Below, piece after piece: positions 6,278-44,780 of a DNA stretch of 64,000 bases. The notes under the pieces were generated by a model, which was not told the DNA's origin, did no database searches, and saw nothing but the letters and a program-made list of their open reading frames with translations. Made by a program: the position numbers and the translations under genes. The DNA lies in assembly GCF_051903065.1 (NCBI RefSeq), contig NZ_CP178438.1; one strand, given 5' to 3'. Numbering within the stretch: the first letter of the stretch is position 1; every line of letters starts with the position of its first letter. Source of the stretch: Escherichia coli. Its GTDB lineage: Bacteria; Pseudomonadota; Gammaproteobacteria; Enterobacterales; Enterobacteriaceae.

Positions 6278-6778
6278 GAGTTCGCGCAACATCCGCACTT
6301 CACAATCAACATGGCCCGTGCAGCCAAGTGCATAGTCGATATGTTGAAAACCTAAATGTTCATACAAACCAATCGCTTCTTTCAAAAAAGCGGTCGTTTC
6401 CAGATAGCAGCGTTTGAAGCCCATTTCTCTTGCCTGCTCCATCGCCTTTAAGGCCAGTTTTTTTGCCAGCCCTTTGCCGCGAATAGCCGGAAGAAAATAC
6501 ATCTTTTGCAGTTCGCAAATGTCCGATTCACTACCTGCTAATGGCGCAATCCCACCGCCGCCGACCACTTCACCCTCGTACTCAACCACCCAATATGCAT
6601 GACCAGGCTGACTATACACTTGATACAGCTCGTCAAGATTCGGATCGGCGACGGTGTAGCCTTTATCAGCGGTAAGACCGTATTCGGCGGATACCTGACG
6701 AATGACGCGGGCGATAGCAGGATTATCCTGCAGCGTCAGGCGACGCATTACAGGTGATTGCGGCGCAATGTTATTCAT
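6275..6778 (-). CDS. yjgM: GNAT-family N-acetyltransferase
   Basis: 167-aa ORF with acetyl-CoA-binding motif [23 protein letters not shown]. Confidence 0.85.
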
Positions 6779-6970
6779 AGTTTAACCCAATAAAAATAAA
6801 GTAATTATACATTTGTTTAATACCACTCTCTTCTTACGTGCGCAAGCGTCTTATAAAGCAATAAAGTTTTTGCCAGTCTATTACTGATAAGAGTATTGTA
6901 ACGTGGCAGAACATTTTACTGTCTGTATCTATAAATTATATCAATGGATTTTTTAATTCAGGGAATTTTT

Positions 6971-8167
6971 ATGGCTCAAGTTATTAATGAAATGGATGTT
7001 CCGTCCCATTCGTTTGTTTTTCATGGTACAGGTGAGAGATATTTTCTTATTTGTGTGGTGAATGTGTTGTTAACGATTATAACGCTAGGTATCTATTTAC
7101 CATGGGCATTAATGAAATGTAAGCGTTATCTCTATGCTAATATGGAAGTTAACGGACAACGATTTTCTTATGGGATTACCGGTGGGAATGTTTTTGTTAG
7201 TTGTCTTGTTTTTGTTTTTTTCTATTTCGCAATCTTAATGACAGTGTCAGCAGATATGCCGCTTATTGGCTGTGTTTTGACTTTGTCACTGTTGGTTTTG
7301 CTTATATTTATGGCAGCAAAAGGACTGCGTTATCAGGCCTTGATGACTAGTCTCAACGGCGTAAGATTTAGTTTTAATTGCTCTATGAAAGGGTTCTGGT
7401 GGGTAACCTTTTTCTTGCCGATTTTAATGGCCATTGGGATGGGGACTGTTTTCTTTATCTCGACAAAGATGCTACATGCCAATAGTTCAAGTAGTGTTAT
7501 TATATCTGTGGTTCTGATGGCAATAGTTGGTATTGTTTCCATTGGTATTTTTAATGGTACTTTATATAGCCTGGTAATGAGTTTTCTCTGGAGCAATACC
7601 AGTTTCGGTATACATCGTTTCAAGGTGAAATTAGATACTGCGTATTGTATAAAATATGCCATCCTCGCATTTTTAGCTTTATTACCTTTTCTCGCTGTTG
7701 CTGGTTATATTATCTTCGATCAAATATTAAATGCGTATGATAGTTCTGTGTATTCAAATGATGATATTGAGAATTTACAGCAATTTATGGCAATGCAACG
7801 TAAAATGATAATCGCGCAGTTAATCTATTATTTTGGGATTGCTGTTAGCACCAGTTATTTAACGGTGTCGTTGCGAAATCATTTTATGAGCAACTTGTCA
7901 CTGAATGATGGGCGTATTCGTTTTCGCTCAACTTTAACATACCACGGTATGCTTTATCGCATGTGTGCGTTGGTGGTGATATCCGGGATTACGGGCGGTC
8001 TGGCTTATCCACTGCTGAAAATATGGATGGTTGACTGGCAGGCAAAAAATACGTATTTGCTGGGCGATTTGGATGACCTTCCTTTAATCAATAAAGAAGA
8101 ACAACCAGATAAAGGCTTCTTAGCCAGTATTTCACGGGGAATTATGCCTTCTTTACCATTTCTGTAA
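6971..8167 (+). CDS. yjgN: Inner-membrane DUF898 protein
   Basis: Multi-pass hydrophobic ORF; likely start MAQVINEMDV at 6971 (track ORF begins 6944). Confidence 0.8.
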   Translation: MAQVINEMDVPSHSFVFHGTGERYFLICVVNVLLTIITLGIYLPWALMKCKRYLYANMEVNGQRFSYGITGGNVFVSCLVFVFFYFAILMTVSADMPLIGCVLTLSLLVLLIFMAAKGLRYQALMTSLNGVRFSFNCSMKGFWWVTFFLPILMAIGMGTVFFISTKMLHANSSSSVIISVVLMAIVGIVSIGIFNGTLYSLVMSFLWSNTSFGIHRFKVKLDTAYCIKYAILAFLALLPFLAVAGYIIFDQILNAYDSSVYSNDDIENLQQFMAMQRKMIIAQLIYYFGIAVSTSYLTVSLRNHFMSNLSLNDGRIRFRSTLTYHGMLYRMCALVVISGITGGLAYPLLKIWMVDWQAKNTYLLGDLDDLPLINKEEQPDKGFLASISRGIMPSLPFL

Positions 8168-8222
8168 GAGATAAAAAAGGCCGGAGCATGCTCCGGCCTT
8201 CGTTTTCATCACTGTGTTTTGA

Positions 8223-11078
8223 TTACAGCGCGGCGATAACAGCCTGCTGTTCAATCAGCTTCGCTTTCGCTTCCGCATAGCCTTCAAGCTTCTCACGCTC
8301 TTTCGCGATGACCGCTTCCGGTGCGCGGGCGACAAAGCCTTCATTCGCCAGCTTGTTCTCGATACGGCTGATTTCGCCTTCGATCTTCGCCACTTCTTTC
8401 GCCAGACGCGCCAGCTCATCTTCTTTGTTGATGAGGCCAGCCATCGGGATCAGCAGTTCTGCGCCGTCGATGATCTTCGTAACGGAAACCGGACCTTTGT
8501 CATCGGCAGGCAGCACGGTGATGCTTTCCAGACGCGCCAGGGTTTGCAGGAAGCCACGGTTTTCATTTACGCGACGTTCTGCATCCGCGCTGCAACCACG
8601 CAGCAGCAGCTCCAGCGGTTTGCCCGGCGCGATATTCATTTCTGCACGGATGTTACGTACCGCAACGATCGCCTGTTTCAGCCACTCGGTGTCGGCCAGC
8701 GCCGCTTCATCAACCTGAGATGCATCATACTGCGGGAACGGCTGCAGCATGATGGTGTCGGCAGTGATACCGCAAAGTACTTTCACACGCTGCCAGATGG
8801 TTTCGGTGATGAACGGAATGATCGGATGCGCGAGGCGCAGCAGACCTTCCAGTACAGTCACCAGCGTATGGCGAGTACCACGCAGTTCGGCTTCGGTGCC
8901 ACCGTTCATTACCGGCTTAGTCAGCTCCAGATACCAGTCACAGAACTGGTTCCAGGTGAACTCATACAGAATGCCTGCAGCGATATCGAAGCGGAAGCTG
9001 TCCAGCGCTTCGCGGTACGCTTTGATGGTCTGGTTGAACTCTGCCAGAATCCAGCGGTCCGCCAGCGACAGCGTCATTTCACCACCGTTGAAGCCGCAAT
9101 CCTGACCTTCCGTGTTCATCAGCACAAAGCGGCTGGCGTTCCACAGCTTGTTACAGAAGTTACGGTAGCCTTCCAGACGCTTCATATCCCAGTTGATGTC
9201 ACGACCGGTAGACGCCAGTGCCGCCAGGGTGAAGCGCAGGGCATCGGTGCCGTGCGGCTCAATACCGTTCGGGAACTGCTTCTCGGTGCGCTTACGGATT
9301 TTGTCCGCCAGCTGCGGCTGCATCATATTGCCGGTACGTTTCTCCAGCAGTTCCGGCAGCGAAATACCGTCAACCATATCCAGCGGGTCAATAACGTTAC
9401 CCTTGGATTTGGACATCTTCTGACCTTCGTCATCACGAATCAGACCAGTCATGTAAACGGTGTGGAACGGCACCTGCGGTTTGCCATTTTCATCTTTGAT
9501 GAAGTGCATGGTCATCATGATCATGCGGGCAATCCAGAAGAAGATGATGTCGAAGCCGGATACCATCACGCTGGTTGGGTGGAACTGACGCAGGGCGTCG
9601 GTGTTTTCCGGCCAGCCAAGGGTAGAGAAGGTCCACAGCGCAGAAGAGAACCAGGTGTCGAGAACGTCTTCGTCCTGACGTAGAGCAACGTCGGCACCGA
9701 GGTTATTTTCTTTACGCACTTCATCTTCGTTGCGGCCAACATAAACGTTACCCGCTTCGTCGTACCATGCCGGGATACGGTGACCCCACCACAGCTGACG
9801 AGAGATACACCAGTCCTGAATATCGCGCATCCAGGAGAAGTACATGTTTTCGTACTGCTTCGGTACGAACTGAATGTCGCCGTTCTCAACCGCTTCAACC
9901 GCCGGTTTCGCCAGTACATCGGCACGCACGTACCACTGGTCGGTCAGCATTGGTTCGATAACTACGCCGCCACGGTCGCCGTAAGGAACGGTCAGGTCGT
10001 GCGGTTTAATTTCTTCCAGCAGGCCGAGTGCGTCAACCGCAGCAACGACCGCTTTACGTGCAGCAAAACGCTCGAGTTTCTGGAACTCTGCCGGGATTTC
10101 GCTGGAATAAACGTCAGATTCGTTACCTTTGGTATCGAACACCTGGGCGCTTTCACGGATATCGCCGTCAAAGGTCAGGATGTTGATCATCGGCAGCGCG
10201 TGACGTTTACCCACTTCATAGTCGTTAAAGTCGTGCGCCGGAGTGATTTTCACGCAGCCGGTGCCTTTTTCCATGTCGGCGTGTTCGTCGCCAACGATCG
10301 GAATACGACGGTTAACCAGCGGCAGAATGACATATTTGCCAATCAGATCTTTGTAACGCGGATCTTCCGGGTTAACGGCTACGCCAGTATCGCCCAGCAG
10401 GGTTTCCGGACGGGTAGTCGCGACCACCAGATAATCTTTACCGTCTGCGGTTTTCGCACCGTCAGCCAGCGGATAGCGGATGTGCCACATCGAACCTTTC
10501 GATTCGCGGTTTTCGACTTCCAGGTCAGAGATAGCGGTGCGCAGTTTCGGGTCCCAGTTTACCAGGCGTTTGCCACGGTAAATCAGGTCTTCTTTATATA
10601 GACGAACGAAAACTTCTTTCACCGCATTGGACAGGCCTTCGTCCATCGTGAAGCGTTCACGCTCCCAGTCGACGGAGTTGCCGAGACGGCGCATCTGACG
10701 GGTAATCGTGCCGCCGGATTCCGCTTTCCATTCCCAGATTTTGTCGATGAAAGCTTCGCGGCCGTAGTCGTGACGGGTTTTACCTTCTTCTGCGGCAATC
10801 TTGCGCTCAACGACCATCTGGGTAGCGATCCCGGCGTGGTCAGTACCGACCTGCCACAGGGTGTTTTTGCCCTGCATGCGCTGATAGCGGATCATGGTAT
10901 CCATGATGGTTTGCTGGAAGGCGTGACCCATATGCAAACTGCCGGTGACGTTCGGCGGCGGGATCATGATGCAGAAACTCTCCTGGCTTTCATCGCCATT
11001 AGGCTTAAAGTAGCCCTGCTTTTCCCAGTGCTCGTAAAGCGGCTGTTCGATATCTTGTGGGTTATATGTCTTTTCCAT
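8223..11078 (-). CDS. valS: Valine--tRNA ligase
   Basis: 951-aa ORF with class I HMGH ([15 protein letters not shown]) and KMSKS motifs. Confidence 0.97.
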
Positions 11079-18844: not shown

Positions 18845-18929
18845 GCCGAAGTGGCGAAATCGGTAGACGCAGTTGATTCAAAATCAACCGTAGAAATACG
18901 TGCCGGTTCGAGTCCGGCCTTCGGCACCA
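18845..18929 (+). tRNA. leuX: tRNA-Leu(CAA)
   Basis: GCCGAAGTGGCGAAATCGGTAGACGCAGTTGATTCAAAATCAACC...GGTTCGAGTCCGGCCTTCGGCACCA, 85 nt with long variable arm and encoded CCA. Confidence 0.97.
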
Positions 18930-19115: not shown

Positions 19116-20381
19116 ATGGCATTAACAGATATCAAAGTCAGAGCAGCCAAGCCAACGGATAAGCAATATAAGCTGACTGATGGTGGCGGTATGCATCTGC
19201 TTGTCCATCCAAATGGTTCTAAGTACTGGCGTTTGCAGTACCGTTATGAGGGAAAGCAAAAAATGCTGGCACTTGGGGTTTATCCTGAAATCACACTAGC
19301 GGATGCCAGAGTACGTCGTGACGAGGCGCGTAAGCTGCTTGCGAATGGCGTCGATCCGGGAGACAAAAAGAAAAATGATAAGGTTGAACAGAGTAAAGCA
19401 CGAACCTTTAAAGAAGTCGCGATTGAGTGGCATGGCACCAATAAAAAGTGGTCTGAAGATCACGCCCATCGTGTGCTAAAAAGTCTGGAAGATAATCTTT
19501 TTGCAGCGCTTGGTGAACGTAATATCGCTGAGTTAAAAACTCGAGATTTATTAGCACCCATTAAGGCCGTAGAAATGTCTGGACGTCTTGAAGTGGCCGC
19601 TCGTCTTCAGCAGCGCACTACAGCCATCATGCGCTATGCAGTGCAAAGTGGGTTAATTGATTATAACCCGGCACAAGAGATGGCTGGGGCGGTTGCTTCC
19701 TGTAATCGACAACATCGTCCCGCGCTTGAATTAAAGCGCATCCCTGAGTTGCTTACAAAAATAGATAGCTATACTGGTAGGCCGCTAACCCGATGGGCGA
19801 CAGAACTCTCTTTGCTGATCTTTATTCGGTCCAGTGAGCTGCGTTTTGCTCGTTGGTCAGAGATCGATTTCGAAGCGTCTATATGGACTATCCCACCGGA
19901 GCGGGAGCCTATTCCTGGAGTGAAACATTCCCATAGAGGCTCAAAAATGCGTACAACGCATCTAGTGCCTCTTTCAACGCAAGCTCTTGCAATTTTAAAG
20001 CAGATAAAACAGTTTTGTGGGGCCCATGACTTGATATTTATTGGTGATCACGATTCGCACAAACCCATGAGTGAGAATACGGTAAATAGTGCGTTACGGG
20101 TCATGGGGTATGATACAAAAGTAGAGGTTTGTGGTCATGGCTTTCGAACAATGGCCTGTAGTTCATTGGTCGAATCAGGTTTGTGGTCTCGTGATGCTGT
20201 TGAACGTCAGATGAGCCACATGGAGCGAAATTCAGTGAGGGCCGCGTATATCCATAAAGCAGAGCATCTGGAAGAACGCCGCTTGATGCTACAATGGTGG
20301 GCCGATTTTCTGGATGCAAACAGAGAAAAATTTATCAGTCCATTTGAATATGCAAAGATTAATAATCCATTAAAACAGTAA
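19116..20381 (+). CDS. int: P4-type tyrosine integrase
   Basis: 421-aa ORF next to tRNA; C-terminal catalytic region HGFRTMACSSL...RAAYIH. Confidence 0.9.
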   Translation: MALTDIKVRAAKPTDKQYKLTDGGGMHLLVHPNGSKYWRLQYRYEGKQKMLALGVYPEITLADARVRRDEARKLLANGVDPGDKKKNDKVEQSKARTFKEVAIEWHGTNKKWSEDHAHRVLKSLEDNLFAALGERNIAELKTRDLLAPIKAVEMSGRLEVAARLQQRTTAIMRYAVQSGLIDYNPAQEMAGAVASCNRQHRPALELKRIPELLTKIDSYTGRPLTRWATELSLLIFIRSSELRFARWSEIDFEASIWTIPPEREPIPGVKHSHRGSKMRTTHLVPLSTQALAILKQIKQFCGAHDLIFIGDHDSHKPMSENTVNSALRVMGYDTKVEVCGHGFRTMACSSLVESGLWSRDAVERQMSHMERNSVRAAYIHKAEHLEERRLMLQWWADFLDANREKFISPFEYAKINNPLKQ

Positions 20382-22363: not shown

Positions 22364-23104
22364 TCAGAAGTTATAAGTCACACCAAGCATGATGTCATGA
22401 CTTTTAACATCAACCTCTGATTTATATTTATCGCCCCACTCATCCTTGTAACTCACACTGCTGTCACCTGCATCAATATAGCGATAGCTGAGGTCAAGAG
22501 CGATATCCGGGGTTACGTCATAACGGACACCAGCCCCAAGGCTCCATGCAAAGTTGTCAGCAGAGTCTGAGTGTGACAACGACTCACGCCCACTGTACCC
22601 GTACCCATAATCCCAGGTACTGATACCAGTTGTTTTCTGATGAATTCTGGCGTAACCAATCCCTGCGGATACCCATGGTGTGAATGCACTGTCGTTCCGG
22701 AAGTCATAGTACGTATTCAGCATCAGAGTGTTGACTGACACTTCATTCTTCAGGTCATCACGCCAGTAACCACCTGACCAGCTGTCTTTATCTACGTTAT
22801 ACTTCGAATCAGCTTTTCCACGCGCGTAAAACTCCAGTTCTGTACGAACCGGAATACTGAACTGCGGATAAAAATCATAACCGGCCGCAATACCGCCACT
22901 GAATACCGTATCATGGTCATCGCCGCCTTTATACTTTGACGTTTCTTCCTCATCTCCTGACAGGAAACGCTGGTCTGAAAGTGACACCACAGAGGCACCG
23001 GCTTTACCGGTCAGATAAAAACCGCTTTTACCTTCCTCAGCACCTGCATTTGCTGCAAATACACAGGCTGCGGCCACCACTGAAACAGCAAAAACCTTTT
23101 TCAT
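22364..23104 (-). CDS. Small outer-membrane beta-barrel protein
   Basis: Signal peptide MKKVFAVSVVAAACVFAANA, alternating amphipathic strands, C-terminal GVTYNF with terminal Phe. Confidence 0.65.
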   Translation of the reverse strand: MKKVFAVSVVAAACVFAANAGAEEGKSGFYLTGKAGASVVSLSDQRFLSGDEEETSKYKGGDDHDTVFSGGIAAGYDFYPQFSIPVRTELEFYARGKADSKYNVDKDSWSGGYWRDDLKNEVSVNTLMLNTYYDFRNDSAFTPWVSAGIGYARIHQKTTGISTWDYGYGYSGRESLSHSDSADNFAWSLGAGVRYDVTPDIALDLSYRYIDAGDSSVSYKDEWGDKYKSEVDVKSHDIMLGVTYNF

Positions 23105-26644: not shown

Positions 26645-26753
26645 TTCATTACCTGTTACATTCTAAATAATCTCAGACAGATATTATCTCCGTGAATCCC
26701 CCGCCACCTTTCCGGTGCGCGGGGTTTTGTCTTTTTTCACCGGGAATACATGT

Positions 26754-27581
26754 ATGAATCCGTCTGATGCCATTGAGGCAATTGAAAAACCGCTCTCCTC
26801 CCTGCCTTACTCACTTTCCCGTCACATCCTGGAACATCTGCGCAAACTCACCAGCCACGAACCCGTGATTGGCATTATGGGGAAAAGCGGGGCCGGTAAA
26901 TCCTCACTCTGTAATGCACTGTTTCAGGGGGAGGTCACCCCGGTCAGTGATGTTCACGCCGGCACCCGGGAAGTGCAGCGCTTCCGTCTGAGTGGCCATG
27001 GTCACAGCATGGTTATCACTGACCTGCCCGGGGTGGGCGAGAGCCGTGACAGGGATGCAGAGTATGAAGCCCTGTACCGTAACATTCTGCCTGAACTTGA
27101 CCTGGTACTGTGGCTGATTAAAGCCGATGACCGTGCCTTGTCTGTGGATGAGTATTTCTGGCGACACATTCTGCACCGGGGACATCAGCAGGTGCTGTTT
27201 GTGGTGACGCAGGCCGATAAAACGGAGCCCTGCCATGAATGGGATATGGCCGGTATTCAGCCTTCTCCCGCACAGGCACAGAACATTCGCGAAAAAACGG
27301 AGGCGGTATTCCGTCTGTTCCGGCCCGTACATCCGGTTGTGGCCGTATCGGCTCGCACCGGCTGGGAACTGGATACGCTGGTCAGTGCGCTCATGACAGC
27401 GCTTCCCGACCATGCCGCCAGTCCCCTGATGACCCGCCTGCAGGACGAGCTGCGCACGGAATCTGTCCGCGCTCAGGCCCGTGAACAGTTTACCGGTGCG
27501 GTGGACCGGATATTTGACACGGCGGAGAGCGTCTGTATTGCCTCTGTTGCCCGCGCGGTATGGAACTGGATTTTCTTCTGA
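26754..27581 (+). CDS. YeeP/YkfA/YfjP-family GTPase
   Basis: P-loop GIMGKSGAGKSSL, DLPG switch motif, TQADK; likely start MNPSDAIEAIE at 26754. Confidence 0.8.
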   Translation: MNPSDAIEAIEKPLSSLPYSLSRHILEHLRKLTSHEPVIGIMGKSGAGKSSLCNALFQGEVTPVSDVHAGTREVQRFRLSGHGHSMVITDLPGVGESRDRDAEYEALYRNILPELDLVLWLIKADDRALSVDEYFWRHILHRGHQQVLFVVTQADKTEPCHEWDMAGIQPSPAQAQNIREKTEAVFRLFRPVHPVVAVSARTGWELDTLVSALMTALPDHAASPLMTRLQDELRTESVRAQAREQFTGAVDRIFDTAESVCIASVARAVWNWIFF

Positions 27582-27780
27582 ACCCGGTGGTGATGCACCA
27601 GACTCTTGTTACAGATTTTTAACTCCATGAAAACACAATGCAAACGCAGCCATACCCGGGTTGTCCCCTTGTGTTGTGTTTTCCAGATTAATAGAATGCA
27701 TCGATCGTTATAAACGATCGTTTGTGGTAAATGACCTCCTCCGTGGTTGTCATGAAAATGCGTCTCAGGAAGGTTAAATA

Positions 27781-30165
27781 ATGCACGAAAAGAACATCGC
27801 CCTGCTTTGTGATGAAGCCGACCGACTTTTGCAACTGAACATTAATCTGCTCCGGCAAATGGTTGATGAACCGGATGTGTTATCTGACAGTAAGAACGAA
27901 AACAGACTGCTTTTCGATAAACAGAAAGCACTGAAAAGAATTGAGGAGCTGGAGGGCGAACAAATCAAAACCGCCCGCAGGGAGATGGTGCTGGCTGTTG
28001 TCGGCACGATGAAAGCAGGTAAATCAACTACCATCAACGCCATTGTGGGGCAGGAAATTCTGCCTAACCGTAACCGCCCCATGACCTCTGTACCGACGCT
28101 CATCCGCCACGTTCCCGGAAAAACTGAGCCGGTCCTCCATCTGGAACATATTCAGCCCGTCCGCAATTTATTAAGCACACTGCAACAAAAACTCGACACC
28201 CCGGCAGGACAGCAAGTCGCACAGACCCTGCAGCAAACCGGGGATACCTGCGAACTGCTGGATATTCTGGCAAATGATGGCTGGCTCAAAAATGAATACC
28301 ACGGGGAGGAGGAAATCTTTACCGGACTGGCATCGTTAAACGATCTGGTTCGCCTTGCTGCGGCAATGGGGAGTGAGTTTCCTTTTGATGAATACGCAGA
28401 AGTGCAGAAACTGCCGGTGATCGACGTGGAATTCAGCCATCTGGTGGGGATGGATGCATGCCAGGGAACACTCACACTGCTGGATACCCCCGGCCCTAAT
28501 GAGGCCGGACAACCGCAGATGGAAGTGATGATGCGGGATCAACTGCAGAAAGCCTCTGCGGTGCTGGCGGTGATGGATTACACCCAGATGAACTCAAAAG
28601 CGGATGAAGACGTCCGTAAAGAGCTTAATGCCATTGCTGACGTATCAGCCGGCCGCCTGTTTGTGCTGGTCAATAAATTTGATGAGAAAGACCGCAATGG
28701 CGATGGGGCAGATGCCGTACGCCAGAAAGTTCCGGCAATGCTGAACAGTGATGTGCTGCCCGCCTCCCGCGTTTATCCAGGCTCATCACGTCAGGCGTAC
28801 CTGGCTAACCGTGCGCTTCATGAGTTACGGAAAAACGGAACCCTTCCTGTTGATGAAGCCTGGGTCGATGATTTTGTCAGGGAAGCCTTCGGTCGCATGA
28901 AAAAAGAATACGTCTGTAAAGACAGTGAAATGGCAACCGAAGGGGCGACAGACCTGTGGGAAGGTTCACTTATCGATCAACTGATAACGGAAGTCATACA
29001 GAGCTCCCATTCCAGAGCGGCGGCACTGGCGGTTGATTCTGCCGCCGCAAAACTGATGCAGAATGCGGAAAATGTCAGCGAATATCTGTCATTACGCCAT
29101 CAGGGGCTACAGCAAAGCATTCAGTCACTGCAGGCGCATATCTCCAGCCTGCTGGCGGATATCCGGGAAATCGCGGACTGTCAGGAGCAGGTGACCGCAG
29201 ATGTCAGAATGGCTATGGAGGAGATCGATACTAAAACCCGGGAATTACTGACGGGGGTCTGCACCTCACTGGAAGAGGAGCTGAATGACTATTTCAGAAG
29301 CGGTAAACGCAAAGAACAGCAAATGCTGGAGGAAGAAAATTCAGCGCAGCCCCGGGAGAGAAACGCATTCGCTTTCTTTCACGATATTTTCGGAACCGGA
29401 AATCAGCATGACAGGATGCGGGACTTTGATCCGGACAGCCCCGAAATAAAATTCAGTGATCGCAGGGAAGCCCTTGAACTGATGACGCAAATCGAATCGA
29501 CCGTGACCAGCCTGCACCGTGAGGCTGAAGCACAGTTCCGTCCTGAACTGGAAAAAATCGTCAGGGGTATTGAAACAGGTTTTCGTGGTACGGCCCTGTA
29601 CGCCACAGAAAATATTGCCGGACGCATCAATGCCCGTCTGGAGGATGAAGGTTTCACTGTAAAAATCAGTTTTCCGGCAGTCAGCCAGTTACAGACCCGG
29701 CTCGCAGTAAAAACAAATCTGAGCGCGCTTATGGAGGAAAGAACGGAGACCGTCACTCGTCGCTGTCGACAGGATGGTGTCTGGGGTACGCTTTGTCGAT
29801 GGGCAAACACCAGTGACTGGGGCTGGAAAGAGTACAGTGTGGATGTGAGCCGCAGCGTGATCAATATCAACAAGGTCAGAGAGGAAGTGATGTCACTGAC
29901 CCGGGCATATTTCGGGGAGCTGCAGGCATCCATTGAGCAGGATATTAACCAGCCCGTCCGCCAGGAAATCGATGCCTTTTTCTGCGCATTCAGGGAGAAA
30001 GTTGAACAACTGCGTAACACGCTGATTCAGAGCTCTGAAGATCGTAAACGCGATCAGCAGGCGCAGGAACGGCTTACCGGGCGACTTCAGGCATTAAATG
30101 AAAGGGTTCCTGAGCTCATTACTGACAGTAAGGCGCTGAGGGAAGAGCTGGAGACAATGCTGTGA
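27781..30165 (+). CDS. Dynamin-like GTPase, CrfC/YjdA paralog
   Basis: 794 aa; G1 motif VVGTMKAGKSTTINAIVG, LDTPGPNE, VLVNKFDEKD; long coiled-coil C-terminal half; RBS AGGAAGG upstream. Confidence 0.85.
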   Translation: MHEKNIALLCDEADRLLQLNINLLRQMVDEPDVLSDSKNENRLLFDKQKALKRIEELEGEQIKTARREMVLAVVGTMKAGKSTTINAIVGQEILPNRNRPMTSVPTLIRHVPGKTEPVLHLEHIQPVRNLLSTLQQKLDTPAGQQVAQTLQQTGDTCELLDILANDGWLKNEYHGEEEIFTGLASLNDLVRLAAAMGSEFPFDEYAEVQKLPVIDVEFSHLVGMDACQGTLTLLDTPGPNEAGQPQMEVMMRDQLQKASAVLAVMDYTQMNSKADEDVRKELNAIADVSAGRLFVLVNKFDEKDRNGDGADAVRQKVPAMLNSDVLPASRVYPGSSRQAYLANRALHELRKNGTLPVDEAWVDDFVREAFGRMKKEYVCKDSEMATEGATDLWEGSLIDQLITEVIQSSHSRAAALAVDSAAAKLMQNAENVSEYLSLRHQGLQQSIQSLQAHISSLLADIREIADCQEQVTADVRMAMEEIDTKTRELLTGVCTSLEEELNDYFRSGKRKEQQMLEEENSAQPRERNAFAFFHDIFGTGNQHDRMRDFDPDSPEIKFSDRREALELMTQIESTVTSLHREAEAQFRPELEKIVRGIETGFRGTALYATENIAGRINARLEDEGFTVKISFPAVSQLQTRLAVKTNLSALMEERTETVTRRCRQDGVWGTLCRWANTSDWGWKEYSVDVSRSVININKVREEVMSLTRAYFGELQASIEQDINQPVRQEIDAFFCAFREKVEQLRNTLIQSSEDRKRDQQAQERLTGRLQALNERVPELITDSKALREELETML

Positions 30166-31067
30166 CTTCACCATTTATTCAACAAATTGCTGATAACCGG
30201 GTATGTCAGGTACTCACCTGTCTTCCTGAAAAATTTGTGGTTGATTTCGCAAACGGAATCGATGTTGCACAGGAGCATATCCGCACGGCCGGAGAGCGCA
30301 CGTTCTTCCGGCGTTTAAAAGAGGGGATGACCGGCGAAGGCGCTGCACGGCAGAATGCCATCAATGCTTCGCTTGCACAGGGCGTTGAGGCGTCCCTGCG
30401 CTGGCTGACGGAGCTGACAACGTCACTTGCCACCACAAACTACGCGATTACCCGGGTAAACGACAGGGTCAGTTCACTGGTCAGTGATACTGCCAGGCTG
30501 GCGCATTATTCGGCTGACACGCGGGAGCAGTTACTCACCCTGGCCGATCAGGTTCACCAGAAACTGAATCATCTTGAAGAAAAACTCCACCGTGTTGACC
30601 AGGTTCAGCGGGCGCAGTTACATCTTGAGCAGATATTCTCATGGTGGAGCGCCGGGCGATATGCGTCATTTTCCCCTGCCGGACGTTGTTATGTGGCACT
30701 TGAAGAGCTTCGCTGGGGCGCGTTTGGTGATGTGATACGCCAGGGCGAAACAGGCCAGGTTAACCAGCTACTGGATATTCTCAGACATAAAGCATTAACG
30801 CAGATGGCACAGGAGAGTGGCGGTAGTGCAACCGTGCGTCTGAACACTCTGGACTGGCTTGGTGGTCAGGGCCGGGAGCAGGCAGATAACGAGTGGCATG
30901 ACGCGATTAACTGGCTGGGGGACTGGTGCAGTGAAGAGCAGCATCCGGTGATCTGGTCAACCACGCAGGCTGCAGAACACTTACCGGTTCGCATGCCTCG
31001 CCTCTGCTCTGCAGAACGCCTCTCTGAAAGTATGGTCGATGAAATATTTCAGAAGGGGGCAGCATGA
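30162..31067 (+). CDS. YjcZ-like protein (partner of the dynamin-like GTPase)
   Basis: GTG start overlapping upstream stop; N-terminus resembles K-12 YjcZ as recalled (LPEKFVVDFANGIDV.QEHIRTAGERTFFRRLK). Confidence 0.7.
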   Translation: MTSPFIQQIADNRVCQVLTCLPEKFVVDFANGIDVAQEHIRTAGERTFFRRLKEGMTGEGAARQNAINASLAQGVEASLRWLTELTTSLATTNYAITRVNDRVSSLVSDTARLAHYSADTREQLLTLADQVHQKLNHLEEKLHRVDQVQRAQLHLEQIFSWWSAGRYASFSPAGRCYVALEELRWGAFGDVIRQGETGQVNQLLDILRHKALTQMAQESGGSATVRLNTLDWLGGQGREQADNEWHDAINWLGDWCSEEQHPVIWSTTQAAEHLPVRMPRLCSAERLSESMVDEIFQKGAA

Positions 31068-32134
31068 GTACAGAAATGAAAACGGGGCTGGTGCTGTCCG
31101 GCGGCGGGGCGGTGGGCGCTTATCAGGCAGGTGTGGTTAAGGCACTGGCAGAGTGTGGCACACAGATCAGCATGGTTTCAGGGGCCAGCATTGGCGCATT
31201 CAATGGTGCCATTATCGCGGCCTCTCCCGATCTGTCAGAAGCAGCCGCACGCCTGGAGGCGCTCTGGAAGCATCTGGGGAATAATCAGGTGCTGTCGGTA
31301 AACCGATCGGTTTACTTTTCATTGCTGAAAAAAATGGTTCAGGCCATGAACCTCTGCCAGATCCCCGGACGTGCAGGAGCACTGCTTACGACACTTCTTC
31401 GCCATATATCGATAATCAACGGCTTCGACAATCCGATGGCTCAGCCGCTGTTGTCAGATGAGCCTCTGACAGCGCTGTTGGATCATTATCTTGATACTGA
31501 TGCTCTGGCAGACGGGCTACCGCTGTATGTGTCGCTGTACCCCACAGAAGGGGGCATGCAGGATATTATTGACTGCATTCGTGCTGAACTGGGTGCCGGA
31601 ACCACGAAAAACGCCGTTTTTCAGCATATCCAGAGCCTGCCCCGCGGACAGCAGAAAGAGGCTCTGCTTGCGTCAGCCGCGCTGCCCCTGCTGTTCCGTC
31701 CCCGTGAGGTTCAGGGGACAATGTTCGGTGATGGTGGTATGGGAGGATGGCGAAATATGCAGGGAAATACCCCTGTGACGCCTCTGGTCGATGCCGGATG
31801 CAATATGGTGATTGTGACGCATCTGAGTGACGGTTCTTTATGGGATCGCCAGGCTTTTCCGGACACCACAATCCTTGAGATCCGTCCCCGGAAAAGGCTG
31901 AAATATGCAGGTGATGGTGGCAACAGCGGCGGTCTGCTCAGTTTCACGTTGGCACATACCGACGCCTGGCGTCAGCAGGGCTATGAAGACACGATGCTGA
32001 CGATGGAGCATATCCGGAAACCGCTGGCAGCACGTCAGGTACTGTCCCGGTCAGAAACGGTGTTGCAGAAAAGTCTGGAGATAACGGAAGAGGCAGATTT
32101 GGCACTGAGAAACGCGATGGCCCGGATTAAATAA
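31064..32134 (+). CDS. Patatin-like phospholipase
   Basis: ATGA start/stop overlap with upstream gene; Gly-rich loop LSGGGAVGAYQAG, nucleophile elbow GASIG (GxSxG), DGG motif in FGDGGMGG. Confidence 0.85.
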   Translation: MSTEMKTGLVLSGGGAVGAYQAGVVKALAECGTQISMVSGASIGAFNGAIIAASPDLSEAAARLEALWKHLGNNQVLSVNRSVYFSLLKKMVQAMNLCQIPGRAGALLTTLLRHISIINGFDNPMAQPLLSDEPLTALLDHYLDTDALADGLPLYVSLYPTEGGMQDIIDCIRAELGAGTTKNAVFQHIQSLPRGQQKEALLASAALPLLFRPREVQGTMFGDGGMGGWRNMQGNTPVTPLVDAGCNMVIVTHLSDGSLWDRQAFPDTTILEIRPRKRLKYAGDGGNSGGLLSFTLAHTDAWRQQGYEDTMLTMEHIRKPLAARQVLSRSETVLQKSLEITEEADLALRNAMARIK

Positions 32135-32464
32135 AGACGCCCCAAAGAAACGCCACCGCCTGTGGTGGTGTTTTTCCTGTCTGGTGTTATTGAAAATATT
32201 TTCAGACATATATTACCTGAGAGAAAGTTTTACCCCTCATCTGTCAATTCACTCACTGGAAATTTAATTATGAAATTACCTGTAAAGTTATTAATGAGCC
32301 TTATATCTCTGGTAAGCGTTATTGCACGTGCCGGGGAATATAAAAATTACAGCCGGGATGAAATAAAATACTGGCGATATACATCATACAAGGGGTGGAA
32401 ACTTCCGGAAGGTTTCACTGATGAGAAATTTTCCAGCGCCATTTACAACGGAAGAATATTTACA

Positions 32465-34216: not shown

Positions 34217-35440
34217 ATGAATGCCATACAGCAGCATGCTGCAGCGCTTCTGGATAGTGTTGCACGATGGAATGAAGTGACGACTCTGGCTAAATTACGC
34301 TATCAGGCCGAGCTGGCACCTGATTTCAGCCTCATGGACTGGCTGAAGAATGACGAACTGGCCCTTTCACGCTATCTACGATTTTTGCTTTCTCCTGATG
34401 AAACTCATGGTCAGTCATCACTGTTTCTAAAGGGATTTCTCTCCCTCATTGAAAAGAGTGGGCACGATAGCCCTATAACCACCGGAGGTAGCCATCATAA
34501 AGTCAGGGTTGATTATGAAGTCACTATTGAAAACAGAAGAAAGATAGACCTGTTGATGACATCTTCAGAGGGTTTTATTGCTATCGAAAATAAGCCATGG
34601 GCAGCAGATCAGGAAAATCAGTTACGGGATTATGCATTATGGCTGAACAAATGTGAAAGACCATGGAAGTTAATTTATTTATGCAATCAGGATCCGGGAG
34701 AGTGGACTCTTCCTGGCAATACTCCGGAAGCACTGAAGCAACATATCCTAACGATATCCTGGCATGAAGTCGTCAAATGGCTGAACGAATGTTTATTGCA
34801 TGTTCGGGCAGGTGCGGTCAAAATATTTGTTGAATCATTGATTAAATATATCAACCAGTCAATTAATGGTGAGTTCATAATGGATAATAGTCGTGAGTTG
34901 TCAGAAATCATCCGCAAGGATAGCTACTCTATAGAATCGGCATTTATGATTTTTAACCAGATGAATGAGGTTCGCAACGATTTATTCAAAGAGTTTATTT
35001 CTGATTTAAATGCCAGTTTCATTAATCATCCTTATTCTATTGAAACCTCGGATGGGGACCTATCGAAACGTGGGGCTAATTTTTATATCCCATTAAGCCC
35101 GGATGGTAATTACTCTTTGTGCTGGGAGTTTGAATATTCAGGTTATTATGGTTTATTTTTTGGCATTTCGGGAGTGAGTCTGGTTGAAGGTCAATCTGCA
35201 AAAATAGCTGCTGCCATGTCAGAGATATTTCCACACACGCAGGGTAAATCCAGCGAATACTGGTCATGGTGGAGCAGGGGTTTAGATCTGCAAGGGAAAA
35301 ATCGCATTCCTAGAGACTGGGGTAATGATGGAGCGGTTTGGGCGAAGCTCCGTGAGCGTGATGCAGACAGCATTTTTGCAGCCACCCGTGAAGCGATTCT
35401 GGCCGTTCATGAAAAGCTGGATATGGACTTATTGCGTTAA
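34217..35440 (+). CDS. Hypothetical protein with PD-(D/E)xK nuclease-like motif
   Basis: 407 aa; KIDLLMTSSEGFIAIENKPW fits the D-x(n)-E-x-K restriction-endonuclease-fold pattern around residues 110-126; no other recognisable domain. Confidence 0.5.
   Translation: MNAIQQHAAALLDSVARWNEVTTLAKLRYQAELAPDFSLMDWLKNDELALSRYLRFLLSPDETHGQSSLFLKGFLSLIEKSGHDSPITTGGSHHKVRVDYEVTIENRRKIDLLMTSSEGFIAIENKPWAADQENQLRDYALWLNKCERPWKLIYLCNQDPGEWTLPGNTPEALKQHILTISWHEVVKWLNECLLHVRAGAVKIFVESLIKYINQSINGEFIMDNSRELSEIIRKDSYSIESAFMIFNQMNEVRNDLFKEFISDLNASFINHPYSIETSDGDLSKRGANFYIPLSPDGNYSLCWEFEYSGYYGLFFGISGVSLVEGQSAKIAAAMSEIFPHTQGKSSEYWSWWSRGLDLQGKNRIPRDWGNDGAVWAKLRERDADSIFAATREAILAVHEKLDMDLLR

Positions 35441-41223: not shown

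Positions 41224-44780
<3,557 letters not shown>

Follow-up and report, generated by a model that had tools for sequence, protein, structure and literature searches.

A translationally coupled dynamin-YjcZ-patatin cassette on Escherichia coli islands as a candidate defense module with a proposed gated lipase

A 64,000-nucleotide (nt) stretch of Escherichia coli DNA (NCBI RefSeq assembly GCF_051903065.1, contig NZ_CP178438.1; hereafter the window, meaning the whole stretch that was analyzed) carries three overlapping genes that encode a dynamin-like GTPase, a YjcZ-family protein, and a patatin-like phospholipase. The question that this cassette raises is what a GTPase, a second small-family protein, and a lipase might do together. 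Comparative evidence lends real support to a role in defense: the cassette is conserved across phyla, known defense systems adjoin it, and regulators of the WYL/BrxR type lie upstream of it. We lean, by a modest degree, toward the reading that it is an abortive-infection-type system directed against phages (or other mobile elements) in which a latent lipase is gated; the physical complex, the gating of the lipase by the GTPase, the trigger, and the cell death that excludes the phage are the parts of this reading that we infer.

The operon has already been noticed and annotated, and it belongs to no named system tested, namely, those modeled in PADLOC-DB v2. In a 2026 study of the transcriptome of E. 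coli MP1, it ranked with the genes most strongly up-regulated in Kapi1 lysogens, and the dynamin/RdcB/phospholipase operon was named a putative dynamin phage defense system, although its authors found no link in the literature between phospholipases and bacterial dynamins (PMC12922286). Our own literature searches turned up no other paper that ties YjcZ, or a GTPase-patatin pair, to defense; a second paper lists the cassette genes in passing. An initial annotation, made from the letters of the window alone, had called the module undescribed, which is accurate insofar as no PADLOC-DB v2 model covers the triplet (weak matches only were obtained) and is overtaken insofar as RefSeq names the genes and the MP1 study calls the operon a putative defense system.

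Three coupled genes and their products

The three-gene arrangement is real and lies far beyond anything that chance could explain. All three open reading frames (ORFs) described in the initial annotation are present in the sequence with every motif quoted for them (Table 1), and the translational coupling that it proposed is borne out by 4-nt overlaps at both junctions. The dynamin/yjcZ junction (GTGA, 30162-30165) reads ATG CTG TGA with the GTG start inside, and the yjcZ/patatin junction (ATGA, 31064-31067) reads GCA GCA TGA and is preceded by AAGGGGG; a terminator-like hairpin begins 20 nt past the patatin stop codon. The GC content of the cassette is 52 to 55%, versus 35 to 45% for the flanking island DNA. 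Its position on a tRNA island also stood up: the cassette lies on the leuX island, 8.9 kb downstream of tRNA-Leu(CAA) and with a tyrosine integrase upstream. The window matches, at ~99.9% identity, the leuX island of E. coli GDSC2BY4G, a decayed mosaic rich in insertion sequence (IS) elements. RefSeq annotates these three genes too, naming their products a dynamin family protein, a diguanylate cyclase regulator RdcB family protein, and a patatin-like phospholipase family protein.

Profile searches agree with the domains assigned earlier to all three products. The first matches Pfam Dynamin_N (8e-18, residues 71 to 299) and carries the motifs GTMKAGKST (75 to 83; G1), T102 (G2), DTPGP (235 to 239; G3), and NKFD (298 to 301; G4) within a GTPase domain of about residues 65 to 320; a long helical stalk comes after it. 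In a sample of 50 sequences drawn from several phyla, to which all of the conservation levels given here refer, conservation reaches at least 96% at G1 K81, G2 T102, G3 D235, and G4 N298/D301. Sequence matches in the Protein Data Bank (PDB) are limited to Nostoc BDLP, in the P-loop region. The protein is 34% identical to RdcA (YjdA/CrfC) of E. coli K-12 over 743 amino acids (aa) and scores 570.2 bits against the NCBIfam CrfC equivalog (NF007368), below the cut-off of 1146; we therefore reject orthology with RdcA/CrfC and regard the protein as a paralog only, as the initial annotation had held. Its further suggestion that the dynamin senses or remodels the membrane found no backing, as no sequence feature indicates such a role: neither a hydrophobic paddle nor a transmembrane segment is apparent (Kyte-Doolittle maximum of 1.16 in a 19-residue window, a test that is blind to amphipathic binding). 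No transmembrane or signal-like segment was found in any of the three proteins, all of which look soluble and cytoplasmic from their sequences.

The middle protein matches Pfam YjcZ (PF13990; 1.8e-70) over the full length of the model (residues 26 to 296 against positions 1 to 272 of 272) and is 30% identical to K-12 RdcB (YjcZ); just seven of its positions are at least 96% conserved. Its AlphaFold model (pLDDT 82) comprises a long antiparallel helical hairpin (residues 59 to 163) and a confident, compact C-terminal domain. Residues ~77 to 160 (window positions 30390-30650) also match the coronavirus spike HR1 in the PDB, with profile E-values down to 4e-11. We reject homology in this case and read the match as heptad-repeat/coiled-coil composition, which could mislead automated annotation.

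The third protein matches Pfam Patatin (PF01734; 4.9e-25) and carries GGGAVG (residues 13 to 18; oxyanion loop), GASIG (containing Ser42), and DGG (containing Asp223). The Ser42/Asp223 dyad expected of a patatin is present and, like the other motifs, is at least 96% conserved, and G13-G15, G40-x-S42-x-G44, and D223-G-G are invariant in orthologs down to 46% identity; the residue after GGGA varies (V/I/K/M/L) and is not the usual Arg or Lys. Judged by these conserved catalytic residues, both the GTPase and the lipase appear to be active enzymes under selection. An AF2 model of the lipase (pLDDT 77) has a patatin core, a low-confidence stretch at residues 98 to 125, and an unbroken 60-residue C-terminal helix (296 to 355), and its structural neighbors are PlpD, VipD (including the VipD-Rab5 complex), CapE, CapV, cPLA2, and ExoU.

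Among these neighbors, VipD of Legionella shares the patatin fold (Foldseek E of 2e-7 for the lipase against the VipD-Rab5 complex, 4kyi) but is a secreted effector that acts in eukaryotic cells on a host Ras-family GTPase, whereas the cassette GTPase is a co-encoded dynamin-like protein and the cassette lipase has no secretion signal. The CapE and CapV structures were deposited bound to cyclic nucleotides, their activators, and VipD was solved with the GTPase Rab5. VipD is a patatin phospholipase A1 activated by Rab5, and thus a precedent for allosteric activation of such an enzyme by a GTPase; ubiquitin is the activator of ExoU. As far as is known, the characterized structural relatives of the lipase all stay latent until they are bound by an activator.

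The resemblance to VipD, ExoU, and PlpD, and the fact that the islands are called pathogenicity islands in some strains, could also be read as the mark of a secreted virulence factor, with the patatin delivered to host cells as ExoU and VipD are and a LeoA-like dynamin aiding secretion. We find this explanation barely credible: the lipase is without a signal peptide, since its catalytic glycine loop starts at residue 12; the passenger/translocator architecture of PlpD is absent from it; no secretion-system genes are linked to the cassette; and the cassette occurs in free-living cyanobacteria, methanotrophs, and sulfur bacteria.

Table 1. Features of the cassette and of the island around it (positions in the window)
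Feature	Position	Strand	Remarks
Dynamin-like GTPase, 794 aa	27781-30165	+	ATG start; proposed sensor/switch
YjcZ/RdcB-family partner, 301 aa	30162-31067	+	GTG start; proposed adaptor or co-regulator
Cytoplasmic patatin-like phospholipase, 356 aa	31064-32134	+	ATG start; proposed effector
Perfect 19-bp palindrome CGATCGTT-ATA-AACGATCG	27702-27720		60 nt 5' of the dynamin ATG
GC-rich terminator-like hairpin CACCGCCTGTGGTGGTG, then a T-run	32154-32179	+	Marks the operon end
tRNA-Leu(CAA)	18845-18929		
Tyrosine integrase	19116-20381		Upstream of the cassette on the leuX island
Phosphoethanolamine transferase, 499 aa	20705-22204	-	Beside the integrase, inside the leuX island
Outer-membrane protein	22364-23104	-	Near the integrase, just inside the leuX island
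Low-GC (~35%) ORF, 339 aa	25625-26644	+	Upstream of the cassette; no PADLOC or NCBIfam match
YeeP/YfjP-like small GTPase	26715-27581	+	Upstream of the cassette; weak LeoBC match (2.9e-8)
PDDEXK-like protein	34217-35440	+	2 kb downstream of the cassette, past IS1; matches PADLOC candidate single-gene family PDC-S26 (7e-34)
Group II intron reverse transcriptase/maturase	~42695-44203	+	RefSeq annotation transferred from a near-identical genome
H-NS family protein	49920-50360	-	RefSeq annotation transferred from a near-identical genome
Stand-alone restriction endonuclease	52117-52995	-	RefSeq annotation transferred from a near-identical genome

Conservation, mobility, and the origin of rdcAB

The cassette is present in 2442 of 5426 complete E. 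coli genomes (~45%; counted when at least 80% of a 4.6-kb query was present), mostly at 95 to 99% identity and in up to five places per genome. These copies reside on CP4-44/CP4-57-type islands at several chromosomal sites, where they are flanked by a YeeP-like GTPase gene and by the DUF932/antirestriction/YeeS/YeeT/CbeA/CbtA backbone. Full-length relatives of the patatin were found in Pectobacterium, Yersinia, Erwinia, Vibrio, Pseudomonas, and others, and in each of the three contexts outside E. coli that were inspected, the dynamin and YjcZ genes precede the patatin gene, with overlapping junctions.

When one genome was scanned for each of 100,044 species, 391 patatin relatives were found, and the best 80 of these patatin-anchored loci were sampled for synteny. 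The order seen in the window is kept in 66 of the 80: that number contains a YjcZ gene, and that number a dynamin ORF (two or three of which are partial), directly upstream and with strand and order unchanged. Triplets occur in the Gamma- and Betaproteobacteria, the Cyanobacteria, Desulfocapsa, the Victivallales, and the Neomarinimicrobiota. Across 56 loci, the dynamin and yjcZ genes overlap by 4 nt or 1 nt in 31 and are separated by at most 20 nt in 13 more; yjcZ and the patatin gene overlap or lie within 20 nt of each other in 55. Pairwise distance matrices of the three proteins are correlated at r = 0.875 to 0.90, and the three proteins co-evolve. The YjcZ family itself is small, amounting to 437 clusters at 50% identity (E ≤ 1e-10; 1.84 billion representative proteins), and a patatin gene directly follows yjcZ in all three of the low-ranking YjcZ representatives that were sampled.

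Departures from this layout are few. The main exception is a clade of Synergistaceae with stand-alone patatins, for which no conserved neighbor or alternative partner was found; these patatins are without most of the C-terminal helix, as they are shorter and their matches end near residue 311. A metagenomic variant (L093:2129-3475) is ordered WYL, a 448-aa protein, YjcZ, and patatin. Here, the 448-aa dynamin homolog retains the N-terminal 73 residues and the stalk, and the whole GTPase domain, P-loop included, is absent, which suggests either that the stalk provides the scaffold, to which the GTPase domain adds regulation, or that this copy is in decay. In Acinetobacter chengduensis, two consecutive dynamin ORFs of 531 and 827 aa (L039:4930-6525 and 6559-9042) follow the WYL gene. 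An ORF of 1688 aa in a Synergistaceae metagenome-assembled genome (MAG) (L060:1290-6356), with about twice the usual bit score, suggests a fused double dynamin reminiscent of the two-headed DynA or of LeoBC.

The cassette is mobile as well as widespread. It is carried on ~45 plasmids, and one allele is common in unaltered form to ~25 plasmids of Klebsiella, Enterobacter, E. coli, and Citrobacter, many of them conjugative. The YjcZ protein of this shared allele is 62.8% identical to that of the window, and IS1 and IS30 flank the cassette; on the Klebsiella pneumoniae IncFII plasmid NZ_CP147596.1 (L092), for example, the cassette is IS-flanked cargo. The plasmid dynamin, annotated at 743 aa, may for that reason be 5'-truncated by IS1. 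The cassette was absent from 50,697 phage records, an observation that is neutral to the defense reading.

Carriage on conjugative plasmids and on CP4-type islands with CbtA/CbeA toxin-antitoxin genes, along with a tight coupling that suggests fixed stoichiometry, would suit an addiction or competition module, in which the lipase is a toxin restrained by the other two proteins and serves to stabilize the island or plasmid or to exclude rival elements, not phages. Such a module seems very improbable to us, as the cassette is far larger and more elaborate than typical toxin-antitoxin systems, the conserved catalytic residues of the GTPase point to signal-dependent switching, and the WYL regulators and defense neighbors described below point to phage or DNA-damage cues.

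The closest characterized counterparts of the cassette are RdcA and RdcB of K-12, the regulators of the diguanylate cyclase DgcE, whose MASE1 domain mediates the activation. Both families are homologous to these proteins along their full length; the K-12 genes stand in the same order and likewise overlap by 4 nt; the dynamins appear soluble, with the G1 Lys and G2 Thr conserved; and the logic is likely shared, in that a GTPase and its partner bind and switch a target enzyme. RdcA is a soluble dynamin-like GTPase that dimerizes, binds RdcB, and docks on DgcE, thereby activating it; its nucleotide-free form is the active one, GTP being inhibitory, and it has been proposed to read a fall in the GTP pool (PMC6510439). 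The differences are that the cassette adds a coupled patatin lipase gene, has no linked diguanylate cyclase, and is mobile and patchily distributed, whereas the K-12 pair is fixed at the yjdM-proP core locus.

The distribution and phylogeny of the two-gene pair bear on which arrangement came first. RdcB-type orthologs have a range limited to Escherichia, Citrobacter, Enterobacter, Kosakonia, and a small number of related genera, and in K-12, Enterobacter, and Kosakonia, rdcAB sits without a lipase gene at one syntenic core locus (yjdN-yjdM, rdcA-rdcB, ... proP; the K-12 pair is L009:5136-8239, and L090 and L091 are further core loci). Neighbor-joining trees place K-12 RdcA as sister to the triplet dynamins of Budvicia and Serratia, and RdcB within the proteobacterial triplet clade, where its branch is long, with the triplets of cyanobacteria and other phyla branching deeper. 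Because the triplet spans multiple phyla, and because rdcAB is restricted to a few genera and one locus and is nested in the triplet clade, rdcAB probably descends from the mobile triplet and has lost the lipase. The polarity would then be the reverse of that in the initial annotation, which had a crfC-yjcZ paralog gaining a phospholipase; since the trees are distance-based and midpoint-rooted, this polarity is a lead and not a proof.

Defense neighborhoods and a proposed gated lipase

Around the sampled loci, a WYL regulator is the sole recurrent neighbor family, as found both by iteration of hidden Markov models and by all-against-all clustering of 378 neighbor ORFs. We accordingly reject a fourth conserved structural gene, the clustering having yielded WYL alone; the small clusters comprise YeeP-like GTPases in three loci and JukA in three loci. 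In a Pfam scan of 300 neighbor proteins from 34 loci, WYL was the top or near-top family (11 occurrences, with WCX), along with integrases/transposases and ResIII/DEAD helicases, and AAA_21, CHAT, Fic, and Uma2 were further families. In at least 17 loci, a WYL/WCX (WYL/BrxR-type) regulator gene lies at most 2.5 kb upstream of the dynamin gene; the two genes adjoin each other directly in Gallionella (13 nt apart), Psychrobacter (43 nt), Acinetobacter (81 nt), P. matsuisoli (93 nt), and V. vulnificus (~100 nt).

Known defense systems lie within ~8 kb of roughly 10 of 17 inspected loci (~60%), a count that is suggestive and no statistic, as the sample is small and comes without a background rate. 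A partial PADLOC census (4 of 20 concatenated neighbor-protein sets) identified BrxF and BrxC, of bacteriophage exclusion (BREX), 1.5 kb downstream in Pantoea; JukA and JukB from 40 nt past the patatin gene in Erwinia, together with a DrmD-like helicase upstream and a restriction endonuclease; JukA in Pseudomonas; and SoFic in a proteobacterial MAG. At a locus of Amphritea atlantica (L052:1549-16192), also recognized by PADLOC, the genes for ZorA, ZorB, and ZorE end 58 nt upstream of the cassette and that for DruE starts 185 nt downstream, such that the cassette stands between a complete Zorya type II system and a 2163-aa DruE helicase; a fragment of a type IIG restriction-modification (R-M) system is found at the contig edge. 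Other loci carry BrxL and PglZ (V. vulnificus), SIR2 and BrxR (P. fluorescens), DndB and TGT (Dpd-like; a metagenomic locus), and a type I R-M system with a DUF262 pair (E. coli 50EVA). A DndA/SspA match in Tolypothrix falls within a nif cluster and was dismissed as a false positive due to NifS. In three loci (L012:11114-12894, L013:11132-11938, and L016:11125-11862), jukA starts 40 to 58 nt after the patatin stop codon, with jukB present too in Erwinia; this juxtaposition may be simple adjacency or may be a functional link.

Set against named systems, the triplet stands apart. The PADLOC matches were marginal (LeoBC, 3.6e-5, with no stretch passing; ZorA, 2e-3; NsnC, 5e-3), and models for the lipase effectors of the cyclic oligonucleotide-based antiphage signaling system (CBASS) matched at 2.9e-5 over residues 9 to 73 (the N-terminal 65) of the lipase only. 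Like CBASS with CapV or CapE, the cassette encodes a patatin-like phospholipase that is cytoplasmic, has a Ser-Asp dyad, presumably stays latent before activation, and is structurally similar to CapE and AbCapV; some cassette loci share the defense-island setting, and many have WYL (CapW/BrxR-type) regulators. The presumed activator is, however, a protein GTPase complex and not a nucleotide, and no gene for a CD-NTase or for cyclic-nucleotide signaling was found in the operon or among the scanned neighbors in the window. With a score of 19.6 bits for NCBIfam CBASS_lipase against a cut-off of 200, and no CD-NTase, membership in CBASS is rejected. Eleos (LeoA/LeoBC; Millman et al. 2022) likewise resides in defense islands and employs dynamin-superfamily GTPases, with a P-loop that is required for defense, but it consists of two (or three) consecutive dynamin-like proteins without YjcZ or a lipase, whereas the cassette has one RdcA-type dynamin. 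We reject this assignment as well, given the marginal LeoBC match, the absence of a match to LeoA, and the different architecture.

The kinship with RdcAB brings up a reading without defense, in which an RdcAB-like sensor of GTP level controls the lipase for lipid turnover or for adaptation to stationary phase or stress and the cassette is ordinary island cargo. Homology along the length of RdcA and RdcB, which regulate DgcE according to GTP status, is in its favor, as are the occurrence of some loci among housekeeping genes and the RefSeq name of the middle gene product (diguanylate cyclase regulator family protein). A diguanylate cyclase is, however, no recurrent neighbor (GGDEF in 2 of the 300 neighbor proteins), the dynamin falls short of the CrfC equivalog cut-off, the cassette is mobile, patchily distributed, and also carried on plasmids, and it repeatedly adjoins WYL regulators and BREX, Zorya, Druantia, Juk, Dpd-like, and R-M genes. 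We consider this reading unlikely, though deserving of serious attention.

A protective membrane system is a further alternative that the genomic association with defense systems would fit equally well. Here, a DynA-like dynamin would stabilize the membrane, or reseal it, where phages have damaged it, and lysolipids or remodeling produced by the lipase would aid fusion or fission, delaying the lysis of the population. Bacterial dynamins have been linked to membrane surveillance and to the delay of lysis (cited in PMC12922286), and DynA of Bacillus subtilis, a two-headed housekeeping protein that delays lysis, is tied to the outcome of phage infection as the cassette may be. DynA differs in binding membranes and acting alone, whereas the cassette dynamin has no predicted membrane-binding segment and is accompanied by YjcZ and a lipase. 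Since neither the dynamin nor YjcZ has a hydrophobic paddle or transmembrane segment, the closest characterized homolog, RdcA, is described as soluble and acts on a protein target, and the characterized structural relatives of the lipase are cytotoxic effectors, we rate this alternative as distinctly unlikely.

The gated-lipase reading, which we favor, is suggested by the facts that RdcA and RdcB bind and activate a target enzyme and that the structural relatives of the lipase need activators. The GTPase-YjcZ complex would be the sensor and switch, and the co-translated lipase would be a latent effector that is kept off. Upon a cue from infection, the complex would release or allosterically activate the lipase, which would hydrolyze inner-membrane phospholipids from the cytoplasmic side, and the cell would be killed or arrested before phage release. 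By analogy with RdcA, the cue may be a fall in the GTP pool; alternatively, it may be a phage protein or an assembly recognized by the stalk. An assembly surface formed by the C-terminal helix of the lipase, the YjcZ hairpin, and the dynamin stalk is plausible. It is possible, though we put it forward tentatively and do not lean to it, that the cassette represents an unvalidated class of immune system in which a dynamin GTPase and YjcZ form a switch that responds to the GTP pool or to a phage structure and licenses a patatin to destroy the membrane.

Several observations weigh against a role in defense or against this mechanism. The nearest characterized homologs, RdcA and RdcB, are regulatory and not defensive. 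Some cassettes occur in nondefense settings: that of Tolypothrix lies by nif genes, an E. coli copy lies by iron-uptake genes, Pectobacterium copies sit at an island edge, and, by eye, Moraxellaceae loci are among housekeeping genes. No WYL gene adjoins the E. coli copies, and their high prevalence could reflect hitch-hiking on CP4-type islands; the neighborhood count comes with the limits given above. The metagenomic variant without a GTPase domain implies that GTP switching is not universally required. Finally, we found no published test of phage resistance, the operon having been discussed in a single transcriptome study.

The surrounding island and wider implications

Upstream of the operon, the palindrome listed in Table 1 is the sole copy in the window (0.01 chance matches expected), and it recurs at an equal offset in three E. 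coli copies, one of them a 96%-identical allele. It could be an operator, perhaps tied to the prophage-dependent up-regulation in MP1; it could alternatively be the terminator, or mark the transcript end, of the upstream GTPase gene. A simple scan found no sigma-70 promoter between positions 27581 and 27781. The low-GC ORF, the YeeP/YfjP-like GTPase gene, or both may be co-regulated with the triplet in E. coli, as the MP1 study reports an up-regulated cluster of five genes. We reject the YeeP-like GTPase as a general component of the system: it is part of the backbone of CP4-type islands, and in other genera it is missing or lies elsewhere.

Farther along, the match of the PDDEXK-like protein to PDC-S26 makes its gene a second candidate defense gene on the same island. 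Next to the integrase, the island-borne phosphoethanolamine transferase, of a kind that modifies lipid A or lipopolysaccharide (LPS), may have a bearing on polymyxin susceptibility, and it is accompanied by a gene for an outer-membrane protein. The remaining genes in Table 1 encode a group II intron protein, an H-NS family protein, and a restriction endonuclease, and many IS fragments are present elsewhere on the island.

Were the cassette validated as a defense system, its implications would extend to several families. It would be a system that PADLOC-DB v2 does not see even though nearly half of the E. coli genomes sequenced carry it, as do clinical plasmids of Klebsiella and Enterobacter, and it would offer the first case of a dynamin-family GTPase that controls an enzymatic effector in bacterial immunity, a bacterial counterpart of the GTPase-activated patatin lipases. 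The small and structurally uncharacterized YjcZ family would gain a function. If the proposal is true, the biofilm regulators RdcA and RdcB would be the domesticated, lipase-less descendant of an immune module that was rewired onto DgcE; validation would thus make RdcAB-DgcE an instance of an immune module domesticated into housekeeping signaling, and the role of RdcB would become testable by comparison.

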